In this document: one piece after another, positions 9,434-25,358 of the stretch
Position numbering within the stretch: position 1 is the first letter of the stretch
Layout of the letters: every line of letters begins with the position of its first letter
DNA from: a virus
Direction: 5' to 3' (one strand)
DNA: 64,000 bases
Virus record (IMG/VR): IMGVR_UViG_3300045521_000059
Made by a program: the position numbers and the translations under genes
Notes under the pieces: model-generated
The model's database searches: none
What the model saw: the letters and a program-made list of their open reading frames with translations, nothing else
What the model was told of the DNA's origin: nothing

Positions 9434-9748
9434 TTACTTACCATTTGCAAGCCAAAGCCAGCTATCACCCATAATAGCCCTGTAGCGTTCAGCATTTTTT
9501 ATATAATCTTTAAAATACGGTTTTTCCCCCTCAATAGAGACCAGCTTTTCAATTTCTTCCGTGTTTAGCAAATTCAATGAAGCTCCATGACCATATTCTT
9601 TCTCAATCTCGATCCATTCTGTTAATTGTATCTCGATGTCCTTCAATTGGCGAAGTTGCTCGACGCTCAATGTTTCCCTTTTGATAACTCGTTCAGTTAA
9701 ATGTTTTAAAATGCCGCGATTGCCCGTGGTTGAGAAATATAAAATCAT
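9434..9748 (-). CDS. hypothetical protein (104 aa)
   Basis: ORF directly downstream of tRNA array 1. Confidence 0.55.
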   Translation of the reverse strand: MILYFSTTGNRGILKHLTERVIKRETLSVEQLRQLKDIEIQLTEWIEIEKEYGHGASLNLLNTEEIEKLVSIEGEKPYFKDYIKNAERYRAIMGDSWLWLANGK

Positions 9749-9767
9749 TTGAAAATGTGAAAGTTCA

Positions 9768-9862
9768 CCTTGGTTTCTCGCCTAGATTCTCTCGGTTTTA
9801 AGGATGAGACAAATCAAACGCAACGAAATGCCCATACCAAGGCATAGGGGGACAAACCAAGG
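9768..9862 (-). ncRNA. candidate structured RNA at the 3' end of array 1
   Basis: 9-bp closing stem CCTTGGTTT/AAACCAAGG enclosing two smaller hairpins. Confidence 0.3.
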
Positions 9863-9911
9863 CGGCCTTTACATCAGCATGAAATTATGAAAACAAGAAC
9901 AGTTTAAAATC

Positions 9912-10006
9912 TGGTGCGGACGGCAGGACTTGCACCTGCACAGAGAGTTGCAAGCTCTCCACTGGGACCTGAACCCAGCGCGTATACTAAATTCCGCCAC
10001 GGCCGC
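9912..10006 (-). tRNA. tRNA-Leu(CAG)
   Basis: Anticodon arm CTGGG-TTCAGGT-CCCAG; long variable arm; encoded CCA; atypical T-loop TGCAAGT; C5.U68 mismatch. Confidence 0.88.
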
Positions 10007-10023
10007 ATTTGAAGGGTTAATAG

Positions 10024-10107
10024 TGGTGTGGGCTACGAGGATCGAACTCGTACTCATTAAGAACCGCATTTTAAGTCCGGCGCGTCTACCAATTTCGCCA
10101 AGCCCAC
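10024..10107 (-). tRNA. tRNA-Leu(TAA)
   Basis: Cloverleaf; loop CTTAAAA; CCA. Confidence 0.92.
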
Positions 10108-10150
10108 AAACTAATAATAGGAACATGATATATAGTGTTTTGTTGTTTCT

Positions 10151-10234
10151 TGGTGCGGCTGAGAAGATTCGAACTTCCACGGGTTACCCCACAGCGACCT
10201 CAACGCTGCGTGTCTGCCATTCCACCACAGCCGC
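10151..10234 (-). tRNA. tRNA-Leu(GAG)
   Basis: CAGCG-TTGAGGT-CGCTG; CCA. Confidence 0.95.
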
Positions 10235-10275
10235 ACATTTCCGCTGATTTATCTATAGCGGATACTCATATGTAT

Positions 10276-10350
10276 TGGAACCGAAGGGTGGAGTCGAACC
10301 ACCGTCTCTGGAGCCACAATCCAGCGCTCTAACCATTGAGCTACTACGGC
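10276..10350 (-). tRNA. tRNA-His(GTG), no G-1, G1.U72, U73
   Basis: CTGGA-TTGTGGC-TCCAG; T-arm GGTGG-TTCGACT-CCACC; CCA. Confidence 0.92.
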
Positions 10351-10393
10351 ACGTTTAATGACTAGCTAATCTTTCTAAGGAATAGCCCGAAAC

Positions 10394-10497
10394 TGGTGGC
10401 AGGACAGGCACTTGATCTCAGCGGATGATCAATCCGTAATCTTTGATTAGTACGCCGACTCCGACGAATGTTACCTAGGATACGTCAGGGCCCTGCC
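10394..10497 (-). ncRNA. 104-nt tRNA-like RNA with no canonical anticodon or T arm
   Basis: Acceptor stem GGCAGGG/TCCTGCC plus A-CCA; internal hairpins GACG/CGTC, TAATC/GATTA and CGGAT/ATCCG. Confidence 0.6.
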
Positions 10498-10504
10498 ATT
10501 TAGT

Positions 10505-10581
10505 TGGTCGGAGTAGCAGGCTTCGAACCTGCGACCTATGGTTCCCAAAACCATCGCGCTACCAGGCTGCGCTATACTCCG
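10505..10581 (-). tRNA. tRNA-Pro(TGG)
   Basis: ATGGT-TTTGGGA-ACCAT; C1-G72; CCA. Confidence 0.95.
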
Positions 10582-10593
10582 AATTCTTCGTTC

Positions 10594-10636
10594 ACGGGCC
10601 GAGCAGCGCCACTTAAGGCAGCAGGTCTCGGCCCGT
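10594..10636. other. GC-rich hairpin inside array 1
   Basis: 10-bp stem ACGGGCCGAG/CTCGGCCCGT with an interrupted inner helix. Confidence 0.5.
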
Positions 10637-10647
10637 TAGTTTAAATT

Positions 10648-10737
10648 TGGTGGGGAGTGGACGGATTTTTACCGTAGCCACTAGGGGACAGGTGTACGGC
10701 CTGCCAGGGTTGTCATACCCTTCTTAACGCACTCCCC
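10648..10737 (-). tRNA. atypical tRNA-Tyr(GTA)-like RNA
   Basis: 8-bp acceptor GGGGAGTG/CACTCCCC plus A-CCA; loop CCGTACA (C33); T-loop TAAAAAT; non-canonical D arm. Confidence 0.6.
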
Positions 10738-10745
10738 GTGCGAAA

Positions 10746-10837
10746 TGGTGGGGGACGGCTAGATTTGAACTGCTTGCCGCATAGGGACTCGGGTTACAAC
10801 CGAGTGACAGAACCGCCCATCCTTATTGGCGTCCCCC
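10746..10837 (-). tRNA. atypical tRNA-Tyr(GTA)-like RNA
   Basis: Acceptor GGGGGACG/CGTCCCCC plus A-CCA; CTCGG-TTGTAAC-CCGAG; irregular T stem and D arm. Confidence 0.7.
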
Positions 10838-10842
10838 GAAAA

Positions 10843-11063
10843 TGGTGGAGATGACCGGGTTCGAACCGGCGATTGTCTTCGGACCTGAGCATTACCACAG
10901 GCTACCTCAATGCTTGAGAAACGCGCTTCCCTACTCGGCCCTCTCTGGCTATTTCGGTGCATCCACAACTCGTGTGCTTGAGATATTTCGAAGACCGGGT
11001 TTTACCCCGGTCGCGTTCTACGTTTTTTGCAACTGCCCACACCGAATCCAGGCGAGCATCCCC
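10843..11063 (-). ncRNA. 221-nt one-piece mini-tmRNA-like RNA
   Basis: GGGGATG/CATCTCC with G3.U70, A73 and CCA; tmRNA-type D-loop CTGGATTCG; T-arm GCCGG-TTCGAAC-CCGGT; helix-2-like pairing; no canonical tag ORF. Confidence 0.65.
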
Positions 11064-11079
11064 AATTAGTATTAAAAGA

Positions 11080-11162
11080 TGGTACGGTTAGAGGGACTCG
11101 AACCCCCACGGTTTCCCGCCAGAACCTAAATCTGGTGCGTCTACCAATTTCGCCATAACCGC
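11080..11162 (-). tRNA. tRNA-Leu(TAG)
   Basis: CCAGA-TTTAGGT-TCTGG; CCA. Confidence 0.95.
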
Positions 11163-11172
11163 ATATTTCTCC

Positions 11173-11294
11173 GAAGAGAAAATGTAATCCGATGGTCGGA
11201 ACGGCAGGATTCGAACCTGCGACCCCCTGCTCCCAAGGCAGGTGCGCTACCAGACTGCGCTACACTCCGAAAGATCGGATTACATTTTCTCTTC
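11173..11294. repeat. 21-bp perfect inverted repeat bracketing tRNA-Pro
   Basis: GAAGAGAAAATGTAATCCGAT (11173-11193) is the reverse complement of 11274-11294. Confidence 0.85.
11193..11269 (-). tRNA. tRNA-Pro(TGG), second copy
   Basis: CCTGC-CTTGGGA-GCAGG; CCA. Confidence 0.95.
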
Positions 11295-11347
11295 TCCGTC
11301 TGGGTTGAATATTTAAATACTCTAAACCCAGACGGATACATTCATTT

Positions 11348-11430
11348 TGGTGCGGCAGGAGAGACTCGAACTCTCACGGTTTCCCAATGGATTTTGAATC
11401 CACCGCGTCTACCTATTCCGCCACTGCCAC
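11348..11430 (-). tRNA. tRNA-Leu(CAA)
   Basis: GTGGA-TTCAAAA-TCCAT; CCA. Confidence 0.95.
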
Positions 11431-11437
11431 ATTTAAT

Positions 11438-11521
11438 TGGTGAAGGGTGTTGGATTCGAACCAACGCGGATTTCTCAACGGATTTACAGTCCGTCCCGTT
11501 CGGCCTCTCGGGCAACCCTCC
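11438..11521 (-). tRNA. tRNA-Tyr(GTA)
   Basis: ACGGA-CTGTAAA-TCCGT; canonical cloverleaf; CCA. Confidence 0.95.
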
Positions 11522-11603
11522 AATTCTTCGCAAACTAGCTCACCAAAGAATATCGCGGTGACGGCCACAACATCCAAAGCCAGCTTGCACTGTTCTTGCT
11601 CAC

Positions 11604-11634
11604 AATTTCAAAGATCATTCTGTTATAAACAGAA
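11604..11634 (-). promoter_or_regulatory. boxB/boxA-like antitermination signal
   Basis: Hairpin TTCTGTT-TAT-AACAGAA followed by TGATCTTTGAAATT, similar to rrn boxA. Confidence 0.45.
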
Positions 11635-11661
11635 CCCTCTAACGAGGAAATACAGACGCAC

Positions 11662-11708
11662 AAAAGAAGAAACCCTCGGTAGCTTGTGGCCAGCGAGGGT
11701 TTCTTCTT
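11662..11708 (-). terminator. attenuator terminator upstream of array 1
   Basis: AAGAAGAAACCCTCG...CGAGGGTTTCTTCTTTT. Confidence 0.88.
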
Positions 11709-11727
11709 GGTTGGATTGAAGGATTAC

Positions 11728-11895
11728 TTAATTTGCGTATCCTTCAGTCGCCAATACAGCCCGCTGACCACATCCCAAATACGGGAGTGGTAACAAATGT
11801 GGGAGATGAGGTAGTGCCGACAAGGCACGAGACAGGGCGACGCGAGCAGAAACTGCCGCAACCTTTCCCTGTACTGTATGTGCCGATGTTGTCAT
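11728..11895 (-). CDS. leader peptide 1 (55 aa; Leu/Pro/His/Tyr run)
   Basis: GAGGA RBS; codons 28-40 = LPHLPHLLPLPYL; lies between promoter and terminator. Confidence 0.8.
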   Translation of the reverse strand: MTTSAHTVQGKVAAVSARVALSRALSALPHLPHLLPLPYLGCGQRAVLATEGYAN

Positions 11896-11939
11896 TTCAC
11901 TATCCTCAAATTGGCGACGTGAATTCGTCGTGTTATCCA

Positions 11940-11968
11940 TAAATGCATTAGGTCGAAGAAACTGTCAA
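11940..11968 (-). promoter_or_regulatory. sigma70-type promoter for array 1
   Basis: TTGACA (11968-11963)-N17-CATTTA. Confidence 0.65.
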
Positions 11969-12106
11969 TACGATTTTTCACTTTTTTATTATTATTTTTA
12001 AAAATAAAATCACGTAACAAAAAAGCCTTTCCCTCATTCGGCAATAAAAGTGTTGGTTTCGAGCATATAACGCCACTATCATTAGACAAAATATTGGAGT
12101 TTTTCG

Positions 12107-13042
12107 ATGGCAATAGATTTACCAACAGCCGCCTTCGCTTTTATTACAGCATTGGAAAGTGTATCAGGTGTTCAGATTGCCATTCTCGAACGTCGTGACG
12201 ATCCAGCAGAATTCTGGGCTAGAACCGCCGCAATTTTATGTGAAAAAACAAAACAAAATTGGTGCAGTGAACATGTTCGCTTTATGACGTCTAACACTGA
12301 ATTAATGGGTATGTCGCATATTATCGAATATGATTTCGACGGAAAAGGAACGCGACGCGTATGCGCGCTGCTGCCTCCCATCTCAAATATAGATCCAAAT
12401 TTCATTGCAGATTCTTATGGCTCCCCATTGCCGACTATTTATGACTTGCCGTCGAGCGCCGAAACTGCAAGCTGGCTTCTTCTATATCATGCTGCTCATT
12501 GTCTTGACACTGCATTATCAGATCAGGAAGAGAATAGAGCTGTAGCATTTGCTACTCTTGGACTTTCACTCATGGGCGGTGATTACAAATTCCTGCCAGG
12601 TCGCGTGCGCTCGTCTTCCAGACAAATAGCCTCAATGACAGGAAAGGCATCCGCATATTGGGCCGCTGGCACCGGAGAGCGCATTCTAATGGACCTTTGG
12701 AAAGAAGAAACATCAGACAGACTGAGAAGAGAATATGGATGCTATCCAATCATAAAGCAGAATAGCTCAATCGATATAGAGCGAATACAACGTGATGCAC
12801 GCATACCTGACGGACAGAATTGTTCGATGGGCGCTGGTGGTAATGGTGGCGGACGAACCAATCCTCAAGGTTCGATTACCGATGCCAATCTCTGGTTGTG
12901 GCTCTACGGCCCTCAAAATGGAGGGGACTCGTCTCCTAAGCTCGGTGTCCCTCCTAAGGATTACACAGCCTTCAAAACGTTCTCCAATTTTAATACTGCG
13001 GCGTCCTATGTGCTGGATACCGCAAATAAGTTAGCGCAGTGA
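12107..13042 (+). CDS. hypothetical protein (311 aa)
   Basis: Long ORF with GGAG RBS. Confidence 0.7.
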   Translation: MAIDLPTAAFAFITALESVSGVQIAILERRDDPAEFWARTAAILCEKTKQNWCSEHVRFMTSNTELMGMSHIIEYDFDGKGTRRVCALLPPISNIDPNFIADSYGSPLPTIYDLPSSAETASWLLLYHAAHCLDTALSDQEENRAVAFATLGLSLMGGDYKFLPGRVRSSSRQIASMTGKASAYWAAGTGERILMDLWKEETSDRLRREYGCYPIIKQNSSIDIERIQRDARIPDGQNCSMGAGGNGGGRTNPQGSITDANLWLWLYGPQNGGDSSPKLGVPPKDYTAFKTFSNFNTAASYVLDTANKLAQ

Positions 13043-13366
13043 AGGCTTAGGAGATAGCCGAAGGTCATTGGCGCGCTGTTTAAGGTCATCGTGCCAAGCA
13101 CGCGCCTGCTTATCACCATATGGAGAGTAGCAACCGGACCCCCAGTCAGAATGCACATAAGTGAATTCAAGGTCTTCTTCTAATGCCAAGGCAGCCTGGT
13201 TCATCAAAGACGCATCAGGTCCAGTAAATCTATCTTCTGGATCATCGTGTTCAGGGTCGTAATTTGGTGAAATGTTTGCGTGCTTTTCAATGAAATCTTT
13301 AATTTCGGCAGCAAGTTTAGATCTTCCAGTCGTCATTTTTATAAAACTCTCTTTCTGTGGTCGCAT
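13031..13366 (-). CDS. hypothetical protein (111 aa)
   Basis: ORF; no motif recognised. Confidence 0.55.
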   Translation of the reverse strand: MRPQKESFIKMTTGRSKLAAEIKDFIEKHANISPNYDPEHDDPEDRFTGPDASLMNQAALALEEDLEFTYVHSDWGSGCYSPYGDKQARAWHDDLKQRANDLRLSPKPSLR

Positions 13367-13456
13367 TCGAACTGACCAAATCGAACCAACTAATGCTGAT
13401 TGATTGTTTCATTACTATTCCATATTTTGAAGCATGAAAACTACGAGTTTGAGCTT

Positions 13457-14272
13457 ATGACTAAAAGAACCGAAGAAGACGGCCGTTTATTCCCATCCAT
13501 TAAGTGGGATCACGGATGGTCATTATCGATCCAGGCCGACAAGTACGGATATCAATGTAGCCCAAAACGAAAACTGGATACATTGGAGGATTACGAAACC
13601 GTCGAGGTAAAAATAGACGGGCCGCATGGCACTTACGTTGATCCACACACAATGCAGCTATTACCACATGTATTGGATAAGTTCCCAAAACTTACAAGTG
13701 ACAGCGGACCTTCCATCGGCGGAAATCTCACTTGGGACGATGTTGATGTCGTCAAACAAGCAATCTTGCTGGCCTCCCTCAGCCCGAATGACGGAGTTCC
13801 TTCAGGAGCAATTGGATGGTCGTGTAGGGAAGTTTATCACGGGACATCGAATGAAAATGCGGAAGACATCCTGAATTACGGTATCAAACCATCTATTGGA
13901 ACAGGCTATTTTGGACGCGCATTTTATGTGGCTGACGATGTGGAACTGGCAATCTCAAACTATGCGGAATTTTCAGATGACGAAAATGGTGGAGCCGTTA
14001 TCGTCACCACAATCAAAGAAGGGGCCTTGATACTCGACTTGAGAAATCATAAGGACAATCAAAAATGGATAGAAAGCGGGCTAGTGTCTATCATCGGTAG
14101 AGACGATTTCGATCTGCAGGCCCGAAAGAGAGGAATCGATGGCGTTTATGATCGATCAGTCGGAGGATTAGCCATTTTTAATGCAGCAATTCTAACGAAA
14201 CCACATCTCATAAATAATACTGCATCCAGCGATGTTGAGATCGACGCCAACAGTCCGGAAATAAAAATGTAA
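13457..14272 (+). CDS. two-domain protein with C-terminal PARP-like ADP-ribosyltransferase motif
   Basis: VYHGTS...ILNYGI...GTGYFGRAFYVADD (H-Y ART signature). Confidence 0.6.
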   Translation: MTKRTEEDGRLFPSIKWDHGWSLSIQADKYGYQCSPKRKLDTLEDYETVEVKIDGPHGTYVDPHTMQLLPHVLDKFPKLTSDSGPSIGGNLTWDDVDVVKQAILLASLSPNDGVPSGAIGWSCREVYHGTSNENAEDILNYGIKPSIGTGYFGRAFYVADDVELAISNYAEFSDDENGGAVIVTTIKEGALILDLRNHKDNQKWIESGLVSIIGRDDFDLQARKRGIDGVYDRSVGGLAIFNAAILTKPHLINNTASSDVEIDANSPEIKM

Positions 14273-14290
14273 AAAATATAAAAATACCCG

Positions 14291-14319
14291 TTGACATTGG
14301 TAAATACATACTTCATCTT
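14291..14319 (+). promoter_or_regulatory. sigma70-type promoter for array 2
   Basis: TTGACA-N17-CATCTT. Confidence 0.65.
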
Positions 14320-14343
14320 AAATGAAGATCACGGAGATTAAAA

Positions 14344-14436
14344 ATGTTTATTCAGTCATCCCAACAGCAATCAAGACAATCGAGTTCATCAAGCTCGAAT
14401 GCGTTGATGTGCGCGGTGACTGACCTAAATATCTGA
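14344..14436 (+). CDS. leader peptide 2 (30 aa; Ser/Gln run) MFIQSSQQQSRQSSSSSSNALMCAVTDLNI
   Basis: GGAG RBS; 14 of codons 4-18 are Ser or Gln; not in the ORF track. Confidence 0.82.
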   Translation: MFIQSSQQQSRQSSSSSSNALMCAVTDLNI

Positions 14437-14463
14437 CCTCCATATCAGATCAAAAGGTTTCAG

Positions 14464-14488
14464 AACCCGCCTAAAAGGCGGGTTTTTT
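14464..14488 (+). terminator. attenuator terminator upstream of array 2
   Basis: AACCCGCC-TAAAA-GGCGGGTT-TTTT, ending 6 nt before the first tRNA. Confidence 0.9.
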
Positions 14489-14494
14489 ATGTGT

Positions 14495-14586
14495 GGAAAC
14501 ATGGCTGAGAGGCTTAAAGCAGCGGTTTGCTAAACCGTCAGGGAGGTAAAATGCCCTCGGGAGTTCGAATCTCCCTGTTTCCGCCA
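14495..14586 (+). tRNA. tRNA-Ser(GCT)
   Basis: GCGGT-TTGCTAA-ACCGT; long variable arm; G73-CCA. Confidence 0.95.
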
Positions 14587-14628
14587 CGAATTCGAATTTC
14601 CTATCCGTAGGGAGTTCAAAAATAATAC

Positions 14629-14718
14629 GGAAAGGTGGCCGAGTGGTTGATGGCTCTGGTCTTGAAAACCAGCGTGCGGGAAACCGTACCGTGGGTTCGA
14701 ATCCCACCCTTTCCGCCA
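14629..14718 (+). tRNA. tRNA-Ser(TGA)
   Basis: CTGGT-CTTGAAA-ACCAG; CCA. Confidence 0.95.
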
Positions 14719-14753
14719 ATATATTGAGTTTGTTTATTTATGGGAGATGGGCC

Positions 14754-14957
14754 ATGACAGTACATGAATTAAATGCTCCGGCTGATGTCGTAGAAGCAAC
14801 TGTCATGGCCCTAGTAAAAACCCATAATAACAAGGCTCAGCAAGCAAAAGAACGATCTGCCTTACGCGGATGGTTCGTCGGTCAGACGATGAAGAAGCTT
14901 AACGGTGCAGTAAGTCGTCACGTAGTGCAAGAAGCAGTATTTAAAGCGCTGCAATAA
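14754..14957 (+). CDS. stand-alone GatB C-terminal/YqeY-like domain (67 aa)
   Basis: LRGWFVGQTMKKLNG matches the GatB tail motif GFFVGQVMK; GGGAG RBS. Confidence 0.65.
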   Translation: MTVHELNAPADVVEATVMALVKTHNNKAQQAKERSALRGWFVGQTMKKLNGAVSRHVVQEAVFKALQ

Positions 14958-14992
14958 TTATAGGAGATAATGGCTATAATAGCCAAATAATT

Positions 14993-15082
14993 GGAAAGAT
15001 GGCAGAGCCAGGTTGAATGCACTCGCCTCGAAAGCGAGCAAGCCGAAAGGCTTCGAGAGTTCAAATCTCTCTCTTTCCGCCA
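14993..15082 (+). tRNA. tRNA-Ser(CGA)
   Basis: CTCGC-CTCGAAA-GCGAG; CCA. Confidence 0.95.
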
Positions 15083-15088
15083 GAATAC

Positions 15089-15162
15089 TGGGGATTAGTT
15101 TAAAGGTAGAACAGCGGACTCTGAATCCGTTAGTCTTGGTTCGAATCCAGGATGCCCAGCCA
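15089..15162 (+). tRNA. tRNA-Gln(CTG)
   Basis: GCGGA-CTCTGAA-TCCGT; U1-A72; CCA. Confidence 0.93.
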
Positions 15163-15179
15163 GAATTTAAAAAATATAC

Positions 15180-15254
15180 TGGGACGTCGCCAAGCGGTAA
15201 GGCATCGGTTTTTGGTACCGACATTCGGAGGTTCGAATCCTCCCGTCCCAGCCA
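15180..15254 (+). tRNA. tRNA-Gln(TTG)
   Basis: TCGGT-TTTTGGT-ACCGA; CCA. Confidence 0.95.
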
Positions 15255-15280
15255 TGTTTTAAAAAAAATGCAATGAATAC

Positions 15281-15368
15281 GGAACCGTGGCAGAGTGGTC
15301 TAATGCACTCGCTTGGAAAGCGAGCAGGCCGAAAGGTCTCAGAAGTTCGAATCTTCTCGGTTCCGCCA
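15281..15368 (+). tRNA. tRNA-Ser(GGA)
   Basis: CTCGC-TTGGAAA-GCGAG; CCA. Confidence 0.95.
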
Positions 15369-15393
15369 GAAATAAACATAGAGGACCAACCAA

Positions 15394-15633
15394 ATGAGCA
15401 ATATGCCAATCAATATCAAAGAACACATTACTGCAGGCCCGTGCAAATTAGTTTGCGCGCGAGCAGATAATCTTTGGTATAAAACTGCTCTTGGCTTTGA
15501 ATTCCCTGTGCCGTTTTCTGATATGGGCGACGCCACGTTTGAGGCAGAAGAAAAAGGCATGATGCTTATGCGCTATATTAGAAAACACAACGAATTAATC
15601 ACAGCTGCGCGACAACAACAAAACGTCGCATAA
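15394..15633 (+). CDS. small phage-type hypothetical protein inside array 2, ending QQQNVA
   Basis: GAGGA RBS; LWYKT..GFEFPVP.SD.GDATF...MRYIRKH pattern recalled from phage proteins. Confidence 0.7.
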   Translation: MSNMPINIKEHITAGPCKLVCARADNLWYKTALGFEFPVPFSDMGDATFEAEEKGMMLMRYIRKHNELITAARQQQNVA

Positions 15634-15636
15634 GCA

Positions 15637-15660
15637 GTTGTCTAATCACCATTAGACGAC
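15637..15660 (+). other. hairpin whose 3' arm is complementary to the D arm of the next tRNA
   Basis: GTTGTCTAAT-CACC-ATTAGACGAC; 15649-15660 is the exact reverse complement of 15675-15686. Confidence 0.7.
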
Positions 15661-15668
15661 TAAAACCT

Positions 15669-15743
15669 TGCCGGGTCGTCTAATGGTAGGACATGAGCCT
15701 TTGAAGTTACATAATGCGCGTTCGAGTCGCGCCCCGGCATCCA
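15669..15743 (+). tRNA. tRNA-Gln(TTG)-like, bulged anticodon stem, U73
   Basis: TGCCGGG/CCCGGCA; loop CTTTGAA; T-arm GCGCG-TTCGAGT-CGCGC; CCA. Confidence 0.8.
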
Positions 15744-15780
15744 CTTTCAGGTTTAGAGTTTCGAAATCCGATCATCACTG

Positions 15781-16821
15781 TCATCTCCTGCCCTCATCGA
15801 CAACACCAAGTGACATCCTTTCAAAGAAATTAGTCGTCATATCCTGGAATGCCTGTTTCTCGTAATCACCATATGCGAGCAGAAAAGCAGTCGAGAATGC
15901 CTTTAAGACTTCGAATAATTTTTTCTCAGTAGGATTGGATCTGGCGACCTGTCCAGAAAATGAATTAGCACTACCGTTTTTGAGCAACCCAATATGCTTA
16001 TATCCAGGTTTGGATAATTTGTAGGATTTCGCCTTCTCGGTATAAGGCTGCCCTGTAAAATCATCCTCCCGCTCTGCTAACAAATAGAGCAAGGGTGCAT
16101 TTATATCTGCCCAGGAATTTTCATCTAAACCCATAACTCCTGGACCCTGCGGTGACATCAGTATGCCCGCAAAAAAACGAGGTTCAGTAAAAGTACGGCG
16201 CTTATTATCACCATCTCTCACGGAAGCACCAAGCAACATCTGGGCTACATAAGCACCGTAGCCGTGACCCACAATAATAGGACGTTCAACATTAACAGTT
16301 TGACCGATAGCATCTTCGACAAGTTTTACGTCATCAAGAACACTAACACACGCTTCTGCTCTCTCTTGCCATGCAACAGGATCTTCCAGCAATGCTGAGA
16401 TGTTCCATTCAGAATAGCTGTTTACCGACGTTTTCCTCAATGACGGACCATTTTCAATAATTGAATCACGATGAAGCGGGGCGACAACGACAAAACCATG
16501 GCTAGCCCAGTGCCAAAGAAGATCACGGTAAGCAAGCGGCTCAGCCACAGCCCCATGACTAAAAACAATCAAACGGGGATTTGGATGGTTACGTGGAAAG
16601 AAGACCATGTAATCAAATCCACGACCTTTCACCGTCGTTGGTGAAGCCGAAAAAACGAATGGACCTTGAGTTGCATACCTGGCATATCTCGGGTCGACAC
16701 CTGGAATATGCTCTCTAATAATCAAAGGTGAGTTTTCAGCATCTTGCGCAAGTGAGGTCGAAGTTAGTAAGCATGCAGCAGCGCCAATTAAAAAGGAACG
16801 TCTGTATTTATTGCACATCAA
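15781..16821 (-). CDS. Tat-exported alpha/beta-hydrolase-fold protein with Gly at the nucleophile position
   Basis: RRSFL Tat signal; VFSHG oxyanion motif; WASHGFVVVAPLH; GHGYGA in place of GHSxG. Confidence 0.75.
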   Translation of the reverse strand: MMCNKYRRSFLIGAAACLLTSTSLAQDAENSPLIIREHIPGVDPRYARYATQGPFVFSASPTTVKGRGFDYMVFFPRNHPNPRLIVFSHGAVAEPLAYRDLLWHWASHGFVVVAPLHRDSIIENGPSLRKTSVNSYSEWNISALLEDPVAWQERAEACVSVLDDVKLVEDAIGQTVNVERPIIVGHGYGAYVAQMLLGASVRDGDNKRRTFTEPRFFAGILMSPQGPGVMGLDENSWADINAPLLYLLAEREDDFTGQPYTEKAKSYKLSKPGYKHIGLLKNGSANSFSGQVARSNPTEKKLFEVLKAFSTAFLLAYGDYEKQAFQDMTTNFFERMSLGVVDEGRR

Positions 16822-24350: not shown

Positions 24351-25358
24351 ATGTCTACAATTAATATCGCCCCAATCGCACTCACTGGCGACCGTCCGAC
24401 TGGACCTCTTCATCTCGGCCATTACGCAGGATCGTTGCAGCAACGACTTCGTCTTCAGGATGAAGGATATCGTAGCTTCGTTATGATTGCCGATATGCAG
24501 GCCTACACTGACAATGCCGAGAATACGGCCAAGATCAGGGACGCCATTCCGCAGGTGGTCTCGGACTATCTTGCAATCGGCCTCGATCCCAGCAGGACAA
24601 CCATATTCCTGCAATCAGCCGTGCCAGAACTCGCGGAGTTGACAATGCTCTATATGAACTTCATTACGGTGTCCCGTCTGGAACGAAACCCGACCATCCG
24701 CGATGAACTTAAAATGCGAGACTTTGAGCGTGATATTCCTTCTGGTTTCTTGTGCTATCCAGTATCGCAAGCCGCCGACATTACAGCATTCAAGGCCACT
24801 TGCATCCCTGTTGGAGATGATCAACTACCTATGATCGAGCTAGCTCAGGAAGTTGCCAGGAAGATCAACCGGGCAGGCAACAGGGAAATTCTCCCGACAC
24901 CGAAAAGCCTTCTGTCCAAGGTCACTCGCCTTCCAGGAATTGACGGTAAAGCGAAAGCGAGCAAGTCACTTGGTAACGCCATCTTTCTGCATGACAGCCA
25001 GAAGGAGGTAAAAGACAAGGTCATGGCGATGTATACCGACCCCAATCATCTCCTCGTCAGTGATCCTGGCCAAGTCGAGGGCAACGTAGTGTTCTCGTAC
25101 CTTGACGCCTTCGAAATGGACCAGGAGAAAGTAGAAGACCTGAAGAAACGATATCGGGCGGGTGGATTGGGTGACGTCACGATCAAGAAGGAACTAATTA
25201 CATCCCTTGAACGGATCATGATGCCCATTCGCGACCAGCGCGCAGTCAATGATATCGACTTCAAAGACATTATTCGTCAGGGTTCAAAGGAGGCACGTGA
25301 TGTAGCGGCACAAACGCTCTCAGAGGTAAAAGATGCGTTGGGTGTATTTTCGTTGTGA
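24351..25358 (+). CDS. trpS: tryptophanyl-tRNA synthetase
   Basis: TGDRPTGPLHLGH (HIGH motif), YPVSQAADI, VPVG-type PVGDDQ, KASKS (KMSKS variant). Confidence 0.97.
   Translation: MSTINIAPIALTGDRPTGPLHLGHYAGSLQQRLRLQDEGYRSFVMIADMQAYTDNAENTAKIRDAIPQVVSDYLAIGLDPSRTTIFLQSAVPELAELTMLYMNFITVSRLERNPTIRDELKMRDFERDIPSGFLCYPVSQAADITAFKATCIPVGDDQLPMIELAQEVARKINRAGNREILPTPKSLLSKVTRLPGIDGKAKASKSLGNAIFLHDSQKEVKDKVMAMYTDPNHLLVSDPGQVEGNVVFSYLDAFEMDQEKVEDLKKRYRAGGLGDVTIKKELITSLERIMMPIRDQRAVNDIDFKDIIRQGSKEARDVAAQTLSEVKDALGVFSL

Follow-up and report, generated by a model that had tools for sequence, protein, structure and literature searches.

A probable leader-peptide attenuator in front of a tRNA operon that serves the codons of its own leader

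How is a set of transfer RNA (tRNA) genes expressed when a terminator stands between it and its predicted promoter? This question is raised by IMG/VR virus record IMGVR_UViG_3300045521_000059, a stretch of 64,000 nucleotides that we analyzed over its whole length (hereafter, the window). In it, nine tRNA genes for Tyr, Leu, Pro and His lie behind an intrinsic terminator and a short open reading frame (ORF) that contains an uninterrupted run of codons for the same four amino acids. We consider it likely that the locus is a ribosome-mediated leader-peptide transcription attenuator controlling the tRNA operon. The parts of this switch, their conservation, the covariation of its alternative helices and its geometry were observed and are the basis of this conclusion. 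The features that the argument needs are given below by position in the window and strand.

11940-11968 (-): predicted promoter, with a -35 box TTGACA (11968-11963), a 17-nt spacer and a -10 box CATTTA (11945-11940)
upstream of the promoter, to about 12000 (-): A/T-rich UP-like tract
11903-11907 (-): Shine-Dalgarno motif GAGGA, 7 nt 5' of the leader ATG
11728-11895 (-): leader ORF of 55 codons plus stop, with ATG at 11895-11893 and stop codon TAA at 11730-11728
11776-11814 (-): regulatory run LPHLPHLLPLPYL, 13 consecutive Leu/Pro/His/Tyr codons, codons 28-40 of the leader
11782-11794 (-): segment 1, GUUACCACUCCCG, the last Leu/Leu/Pro/Leu/Pro codons, forming the 5' arm of the 1:2 hairpin
11760-11776 (-): segment 2, GGGAUGUGGUCAGCGGG, codons Gly-Cys-Gly-Gln-Arg, partner of either segment 1 or segment 3
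11718-11745 (-): hairpin with the leader stop codon (11730-11728) in its loop, seen in minimum-energy folds
11685-11697 (-): segment 3, CUCGCUGGCCACA, covering the loop of the terminator and the top of its 5' arm, antiterminator partner of segment 2
11662-11708 (-): intrinsic terminator (3:4), G+C-rich, in which a U tract follows a 15-bp stem and a small inner stem
9912-11521 (-): nine tRNA genes (ARAGORN), with Rfam tRNA matches of 43-68 bits

Transcription was predicted to start near 11933. The ORF also exists in a 70-amino-acid version from an ATG at 11940, which begins inside the predicted -10 box; because of this overlap the longer version is unlikely to be transcribed, and the 55-codon version with its Shine-Dalgarno motif was preferred. 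Codons 28-40 read CTA CCT CAT CTC CCA CAT TTG TTA CCA CTC CCG TAT TTG. The array behind the terminator has the order Tyr(GTA), Leu(CAA), Pro(TGG), Leu(TAG), Pro(TGG), His(GTG), Leu(GAG), Leu(TAA), Leu(CAG), and supplies cognate tRNAs for the run codons CUA, CUC, UUG, UUA, CCN, CAU and UAU. The terminator had a folding energy of -29.0 kcal/mol and is separated from the first tRNA by a spacer of 140 nt. Between tRNA-Pro and tRNA-Leu(TAG), the array contains a gap of 500 nt without a predicted tRNA (10582-11079, minus strand).

The initial annotation of this DNA, made from the sequence alone, had already placed the run codons, the helices, the terminator and the nine tRNAs, and every one of its coordinates matched the sequence. 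The arms that it had paired ahead of the antiterminator, ACCACTCCC and GGGATGTGGT, were located at 11791-11783 and 11776-11767, respectively. It had also counted CTG among the codons that cover the five Leu anticodons of the array. This codon is indeed present, as codon 21 at 11835-11833, but it lies ~40 nt 5' of segment 1 and thus outside the effective run. At that distance a ribosome stalled on it would not unmask segment 2, and tRNA-Leu(CAG) is therefore left without a Watson-Crick cognate codon in the effective run.

An attenuator of this type depends on helices that exclude one another, and we analyzed these in an alignment of 16 run-to-terminator regions. RNAalifold, run without any hint, returned as its consensus structure exactly the 2:3 antiterminator (columns 57-67 x 149-159), in which the Gly-Gln-Arg codons of segment 2 pair with the loop of the terminator and the top of its 5' arm. 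None of the 11 pairs of this helix was broken in the 16 sequences, while four had changed on both sides (U-A/C-G, G-C/A-U, A-U/G-C and G-C/A-U), so that the covariation in homologs that the initial annotation had put forward as a check came out in favor of the helix. When the pairs were counted independently, the six haplotypes were 100% paired, a value reached by 0 of 2000 column shuffles, and control helices in which the partner had been slid by 1-3 columns paired at only 21-53%. A seventh haplotype (locus L047) retained the helix with one G.U pair. The antiterminator had been described as a helix of 13 bp between TGTGGTCAGCGGG (11772-11760) and CTCGCTGGCCACA (11697-11685); all 13 bp, including two G.U pairs, are present in the window, but the conserved core comprises only 11 bp, the two extra pairs being specific to the window's lineage. 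The energy of the 2:3 duplex was -23.5 kcal/mol. Two of the covarying positions of segment 3 fall in the inner stem or loop of the terminator, outside its main stem, indicating that the 2:3 pairing imposes a separate constraint.

The two competing structures were also preserved. The terminator was found in 16/16 relatives with a stem of 13-19 bp, a T-rich tail and compensatory changes at most stem positions. The 1:2 hairpin, with a local fold of -17.0 kcal/mol in the window, was likewise found in 16/16 aligned relatives (-11 to -19.6 kcal/mol), and in it the last Leu/Pro codons pair with the Gly-rich codons of segment 2. Column 57 of segment 2 covaried with both of its partners, being A-U-A in the window versus G-C-G in most relatives; in three relatives, an A stands opposite a C in the 1:2 pair at this column. 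Since the Pro codons (CCN) pair with the Gly codons (GGN) in helix 1:2, the encoded peptide LPLPY-G-S/C-G-Q-R looks conserved; its Gln-Arg codons lie in helix 2:3. A hairpin in the interval around the stop codon also folds in most relatives.

The related loci were compared by way of the gene on the other side of the promoter:

12107-13042 (+): divergent neighbor gene encoding a conserved protein of 311 amino acids, with no Pfam or PHROG family

We found 80 homologues of this protein; their sources were metagenomes and assemblies of Rhizobium, Sinorhizobium, Agrobacterium and Neorhizobium. The synteny of the Tyr/Leu/Pro/His array, the 311-amino-acid gene and a Ser/Gln array was conserved. A homologous leader ORF of 46-59 codons was present in 22 related loci that carry a Tyr/Leu/Pro array, amounting to ~13 distinct leader sequences, and the neighboring protein was 46-100% identical among the loci with a homologous leader, terminator and array. 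On the other hand, the eight loci without an array upstream of the 311-amino-acid gene had no leader ORF (L012, L020, L025-27, L029, L044 and L046). The densest stretch of the leader contained 12-13 Leu, Pro, His or Tyr residues out of 13 in most loci and 9/13 in one lineage. Its composition was preserved while the order of residues varied between lineages, as seen from LPHLPHLLPLPYL, HLPLPLHLLPLPY, YHPSPLYPLPLPY and LYHLPYLLPLPYP. The composition also followed the content of the array, since two lineages whose array lacks tRNA-His (L017-19 and L021) had leaders without His codons, while His codons were found in the leaders of all 12 distinct arrays with tRNA-His. The signals in front of the leader were conserved as well: TTGAC occurred 70-74 nt 5' of the leader ATG in 14/16 relatives and at 64 and 94 nt in the other two, a hexamer NATNTA followed 17 nt after TTGAC in most relatives (read by eye), and a Shine-Dalgarno motif (GAGGA, AGGA or GGA) stood at an equal distance before the start codon in all of them.

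Some further observations concern these loci. The 311-amino-acid protein contains several invariant Cys, Trp and His residues. Its gene always adjoins the Ser/Gln array and is flanked by the Tyr/Leu/Pro array on its other side wherever that array is present. ARAGORN missed the first tRNA (Tyr, GUA) in L021, L022, L024 and L028, though the anticodon loop is visible and, in L021, a CCA end as well; the tRNA-Tyr of these upstream arrays seems atypical. When phage and plasmid collections were searched at the DNA level with the array region, only tRNA-level matches came up, and a scan of viral contigs with two neighboring proteins found no relatives. A GyrB scan of the viral contigs gave relatives at 42-49% identity only, which were not used.

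We then asked how far such a leader could be expected by chance. All six frames of the 64-kb window were scanned for 13-residue stretches with at least 11 Leu, Pro, His or Tyr residues, and the leader was the only place to pass (expected number for 13/13, 1.3e-4). The region 11655-11830 folded at -69.8 kcal/mol (z = -7.0), and 0/200 shuffles were as low. Corresponding scans for Ser/Gln and for Trp/Thr/Cys/Arg, at stricter cut-offs, each identified a single place, and these were short ORFs directly before the other two arrays of the window:

14291-14488 (+): Ser/Gln leader region, with an ORF at 14344-14436 and a terminator at 14462-14486
50257-50475 (+): Trp/Thr/Cys/Arg leader region, with an ORF at 50336-50410 and a terminator ending near 50475

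The promoter layout of the first array was repeated before arrays 2 and 3. In both, the end of the terminator is followed by the first tRNA after roughly 8-20 nt, which leaves no room for a promoter, and the tRNAs of these arrays are therefore transcribable only by read-through. The Ser/Gln leader and terminator were kept in 18/18 related loci examined, and the Trp/Thr/Cys/Arg leader was near-identical in the cultured strain Mesorhizobium sp. SP-1A. This strain also carries a neighbor protein 89% identical to that of the window, together with the same leader. In it, the corresponding region of a 1.19-Mb contig holds ~45 tRNA genes in seven arrays over ~130 kb, covering all 20 amino acids, in addition to the strain's normal dispersed host tRNA set, and three of the seven arrays have matched leaders.

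To relate the run to the helices, we performed constrained folds of the nascent transcript, ending at segment 3, with a stalled ribosome placed on it; its footprint reached 15 nt to the 5' side and 11 nt to the 3' side of the first A-site base. Whichever run codon of the window occupied the A site, the 2:3 helix formed with 10-11 of its 11 pairs. At the next two codons past the run it dropped to 7 and then to 0 pairs. Most relatives gave the same result as the window. Since helix 2:3 forms for every codon of the run and is lost one to two codons later, the run coincides with the positions at which a stalled ribosome releases the antiterminator.

These results support the classical 1:2/2:3/3:4 logic that the initial annotation had proposed, as all that this logic requires at the level of sequence is present and under selection. 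From these parts we infer the regulation itself, namely the translation of the leader, the stalling of ribosomes in it, the kinetic order of folding, the physiological trigger and a read-through that rises with slow decoding of the run codons. Transcription would begin at TTGACA-N17-CATTTA, and a ribosome would translate the 55-codon leader. When decoding is fast, the ribosome would pass over segment 2 to the stop codon, with segment 2 either masked or re-paired with segment 1; segment 3 would then pair with segment 4, and the polymerase would halt at 11662, before the tRNA genes. With too little charged tRNA-Leu, -Pro, -His or -Tyr, the ribosome would stall in the run and cover segment 1, leaving segment 2 free to pair with segment 3 once the latter is made. 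The terminator would be blocked in this state, and the polymerase would continue across a boxA-like element into the nine tRNA genes for the four amino acids of the run. The outcome would be a negative feedback in which the array is expressed once its own products or their host equivalents become limiting. Thus the rhizobial accessory element probably makes the tRNAs of the array only when the run codons are read slowly, and the trigger could be either a depletion of tRNA, for example by cleavage, or a shortage of amino acids.

The element that polymerases would cross after the terminator is the following:

11603-11616 (-): boxA-like element GAUCUUUGAAAUUG (GATCTTTGAAATTG), ~45 nt after the terminator U tract and after two small hairpins

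The motif was found at the same distance in 16/16 relatives, where it takes forms such as GUUCUUUGACAUUG and GTTCTTTGACATTG (for example L040:559-572). It resembles a motif of the ribosomal RNA (rRNA) leader, TGTTCTTTGACAA, found ~250 nt 5' of the 16S rRNA gene in Mesorhizobium sp. SP-1A, and also occurs 3' of the promoter before another array of the element (L037). As in rRNA operons, where boxA follows boxB, the motif follows small hairpins; the difference is that it sits in the leader of a tRNA operon, 3' of an attenuator. By this resemblance, the motif is a putative boxA-like signal for processive antitermination that would act on polymerases once they are past the attenuator, which suggests that antitermination of the rRNA type acts on the tRNA array.

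Several observations weigh against the attenuator as described. Before segment 4 exists, helix 2:3 (-20 to -24 kcal/mol) is more stable than helix 1:2 (-11 to -20 kcal/mol), and in the nascent RNA of 13/16 sequences it is the minimum-energy state in the absence of a ribosome. Since 2:3 wins at equilibrium, termination by unstalled transcripts must rest either on 1:2 forming first or on a ribosome covering segment 2. The direct path from 1:2 to 2:3 had a barrier of 14 kcal/mol in the window and of 6-25 kcal/mol in relatives, values that are heuristic upper bounds and that fit a kinetic trapping of 1:2 when no ribosome stalls. The leader stop codon lies 9-45 nt past segment 2 across the sequences; at the 33 nt found in the window, the terminating ribosome itself would not be over segment 2. 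In L047, the 1:2 hairpin overlaps segment 2 by just 2-3 nt, and the antiterminator displaces only the upper part of what is a long terminator stem. The relatives have common descent, and ~6 haplotypes underlie the covariation. Moreover, the other four arrays of Mesorhizobium sp. SP-1A (Phe/Arg; Lys; Glu/Asp; and one of 13 tRNAs) have neither leader nor terminator, so that the design is not universal on the element. We compared ant-metagenome metatranscriptomes, available as assembled contigs, with positions 9700-15900 and found that the contigs cover and bridge the leader, the terminator and the array; such contigs cannot show the start, end, strand or level of a transcript, and may derive from DNA carry-over. 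A contig of 521 nt (11518-12038), one end of which lies 3 nt away from the tRNA-Tyr 5' end, was given no weight. The highest summed depth was observed within array 1, at 10942-11148; it may reflect abundant RNA or conserved tRNA pieces of other organisms.

The same parts can be read in other ways. A ribosome-dependent attenuator might report general translation trouble and not four specific aminoacyl-tRNAs, the source of trouble being slow peptide-bond formation on the Pro-rich LPLPY, too little elongation factor P or antibiotics that target the ribosome. Ribosomes are known to slow down on proline-rich tracts, and L-P-L-P-Y followed by G-S/C-G-Q-R is the most conserved stretch of the peptide. 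This conservation is, however, accounted for by RNA pairing in helices 1:2 and 2:3, and in most relatives the motif has no consecutive prolines. The part of the run upstream of it varies freely yet stays within Leu, Pro, His and Tyr. Induction by translational stress does have a precedent in the trn operon of Anabaena (PMC8421152), but a general stress sensor predicts neither the match in composition, nor the loss of His codons where tRNA-His is absent, nor the fact that the other two leaders (Ser/Gln; Trp/Thr/Cys/Arg) differ and are each matched to their own tRNAs. It is disfavored for these reasons, and we regard it as improbable.

It is also highly improbable that the ORF is a small protein gene of the ordinary kind and that the terminator belongs to it, the array being transcribed from a separate promoter in the spacer with TCTTTGAAAT as the -35 box. 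The spacer motif of all relatives does contain TTGACA or TTGAAA, but in no relative is it followed, 16-18 nt further on, by a -10-like hexamer (by eye), and a consensus promoter scan of that strand was empty between 11662 and 11521. We rejected the motif as a second promoter for want of this -10 box and in view of its likeness to the rRNA-leader boxA of a related host and its occurrence past a promoter before another array (L037). An ordinary gene would agree with the length of the ORF, which at 46-59 codons is long for a leader, and with a semi-conserved Ala/Arg-rich stretch before the run; it leaves unexplained the covarying 2:3 helix with the inner-stem and loop bases of the terminator, the match in composition and the correlation with tRNA-His, and arrays 2 and 3 have no room for a second promoter. 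The leader ORF may encode a functional small protein as an extra role, although such a protein does not explain the RNA covariation. A chance ORF beside a chance terminator is scarcely credible: all that speaks for it is that short ORFs and hairpins are common, and it is refuted by the uniqueness of the leader in the window, its conservation in 22 loci and the compensatory changes. A leader-peptide attenuator with specific codons thus remains our preferred explanation.

Textbook accounts place the control of bacterial tRNA genes at the promoter, through the stringent response and growth rate. Leader-peptide attenuation is familiar from amino-acid biosynthesis and from a small number of synthetase genes. 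The locus resembles the multivalent attenuators of enterobacteria (ilvGMEDA for Ile/Leu/Val and thr for Thr/Ile, as well as his, leu, trp and pheA) in having a promoter, a short ORF whose regulatory codons fall within segment 1 and directly 5' of it, helices 1:2, 2:3 and 3:4 that exclude one another, and a terminator. It differs from them in that the targets are tRNAs and not biosynthetic enzymes, so that the sensor reads the molecules that it controls. In addition, the leader is longer (55 codons) with its stop codon 33 nt past segment 2, and the locus lies in an accessory region of alphaproteobacterial genomes and has no sequence relationship to the enterobacterial leaders. Only tRNAs reached Rfam gathering scores in the window. 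The best non-tRNA match of the leader region was His_leader (RF00514), which aligned over the full length of the model at 11664-11802 (minus strand), exactly from the run to the terminator, with 25.3 versus 49 bits (E = 0.046). Being below threshold, this match is a resemblance in architecture and not membership, and no curated leader family fits the locus. The nearest known system by target appears to be pheST of Escherichia coli, in which the pheM leader attenuates phenylalanyl-tRNA synthetase. Here, too, as is generally known, leader-peptide attenuation acts on a translation component that serves the sensed codons; the target in pheST is a synthetase for one amino acid, whereas the window has nine tRNA genes for four. 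T-boxes bind tRNA directly and without translation, its charging setting the choice between terminator and antiterminator. They share with the locus that the supply or charging of a specific tRNA would decide this choice before translation-related genes, but the ORF, the Shine-Dalgarno motif and the codon run point to a switch read by the ribosome, and the T-box covariance model gave no match at E values of up to 10.

A long accessory tRNA array is also known from a megaplasmid of Anabaena sp. PCC 7120, the trn operon (PMC8421152; PMC10272220), the only such array for which a description of its regulation was found, and there a control of the promoter by a protein repressor was proposed (PMC8421152), which was later named TrcR (PMC10272220). 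The words leader, attenuation and terminator are absent from the text of PMC8421152. Both are accessory arrays on an extra replicon or element that are, or in the window would be, off by default and on when translation is impaired; the difference is that the window has a cis-acting RNA switch that would be read by the ribosome and be specific to groups of amino acids. A search of full-text literature, which leaves most subscription journals outside its coverage, found no report of leader-peptide attenuation of tRNA genes. What appears to be new is a ribosome-read terminator/antiterminator switch that gates a tRNA operon through a leader written in codons of the controlled tRNAs, the mechanism itself being classical.

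The remaining genes of the window include ClpB-like, GyrA, GyrB, TrpRS, NrdE, RtcB, two cytosine methylases and an integrase-like gene, together with many genes without a family. Among them are the following:

13400-14272 (+): PARP-like protein
24351-25358 (+): TrpRS
53288-54454 (-): ADP-ribosylglycohydrolase
54584-56029 (+): RtcB RNA ligase

Together, these four look like a kit for the maintenance or repair of translation. As side observations on the cultured relative, the four leaderless arrays of Mesorhizobium sp. SP-1A (L034-L037, on contig 2 at ~935-1066 kb) share a strong promoter-like box, TTTTTGTTGTTGAC. Immediately 5' of three of these promoters, each time after a terminator, small ORFs are found that are rich in residues of the array behind them, such as an Arg/Phe-rich 18-mer before the Phe/Arg array and an Asp/Glu-rich 25-mer before the Glu/Asp array.

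At least three arrays are grouped by amino acid. Tentatively, and as a possibility that we hold to be rather less probable than its opposite, the attenuator could be a module of a self-contained, demand-regulated back-up translation kit on a large rhizobial accessory element, with the loss of specific host tRNAs as its trigger (for example by anticodon-nuclease cleavage from competing elements or defense systems) and not starvation. If this were true, each amino-acid-grouped array would be switched on separately by a codon-matched leader, and the whole would be a tRNA-homeostasis or counter-defense circuit that senses decoding capacity directly.

The attenuator itself would provide a direct feedback on tRNA supply, since slow decoding of a set of codons would release exactly those tRNAs that read it, which would account for the sorting of accessory tRNA arrays by amino acid. 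Such a switch would also be a compact natural sensor of codon-specific decoding capacity for use in synthetic biology. As the cultured relative Mesorhizobium sp. SP-1A carries the same leader, the question can be addressed directly by experiment, and the locus offers a testable mechanism by which mobile elements and phages may supply tRNAs on demand.

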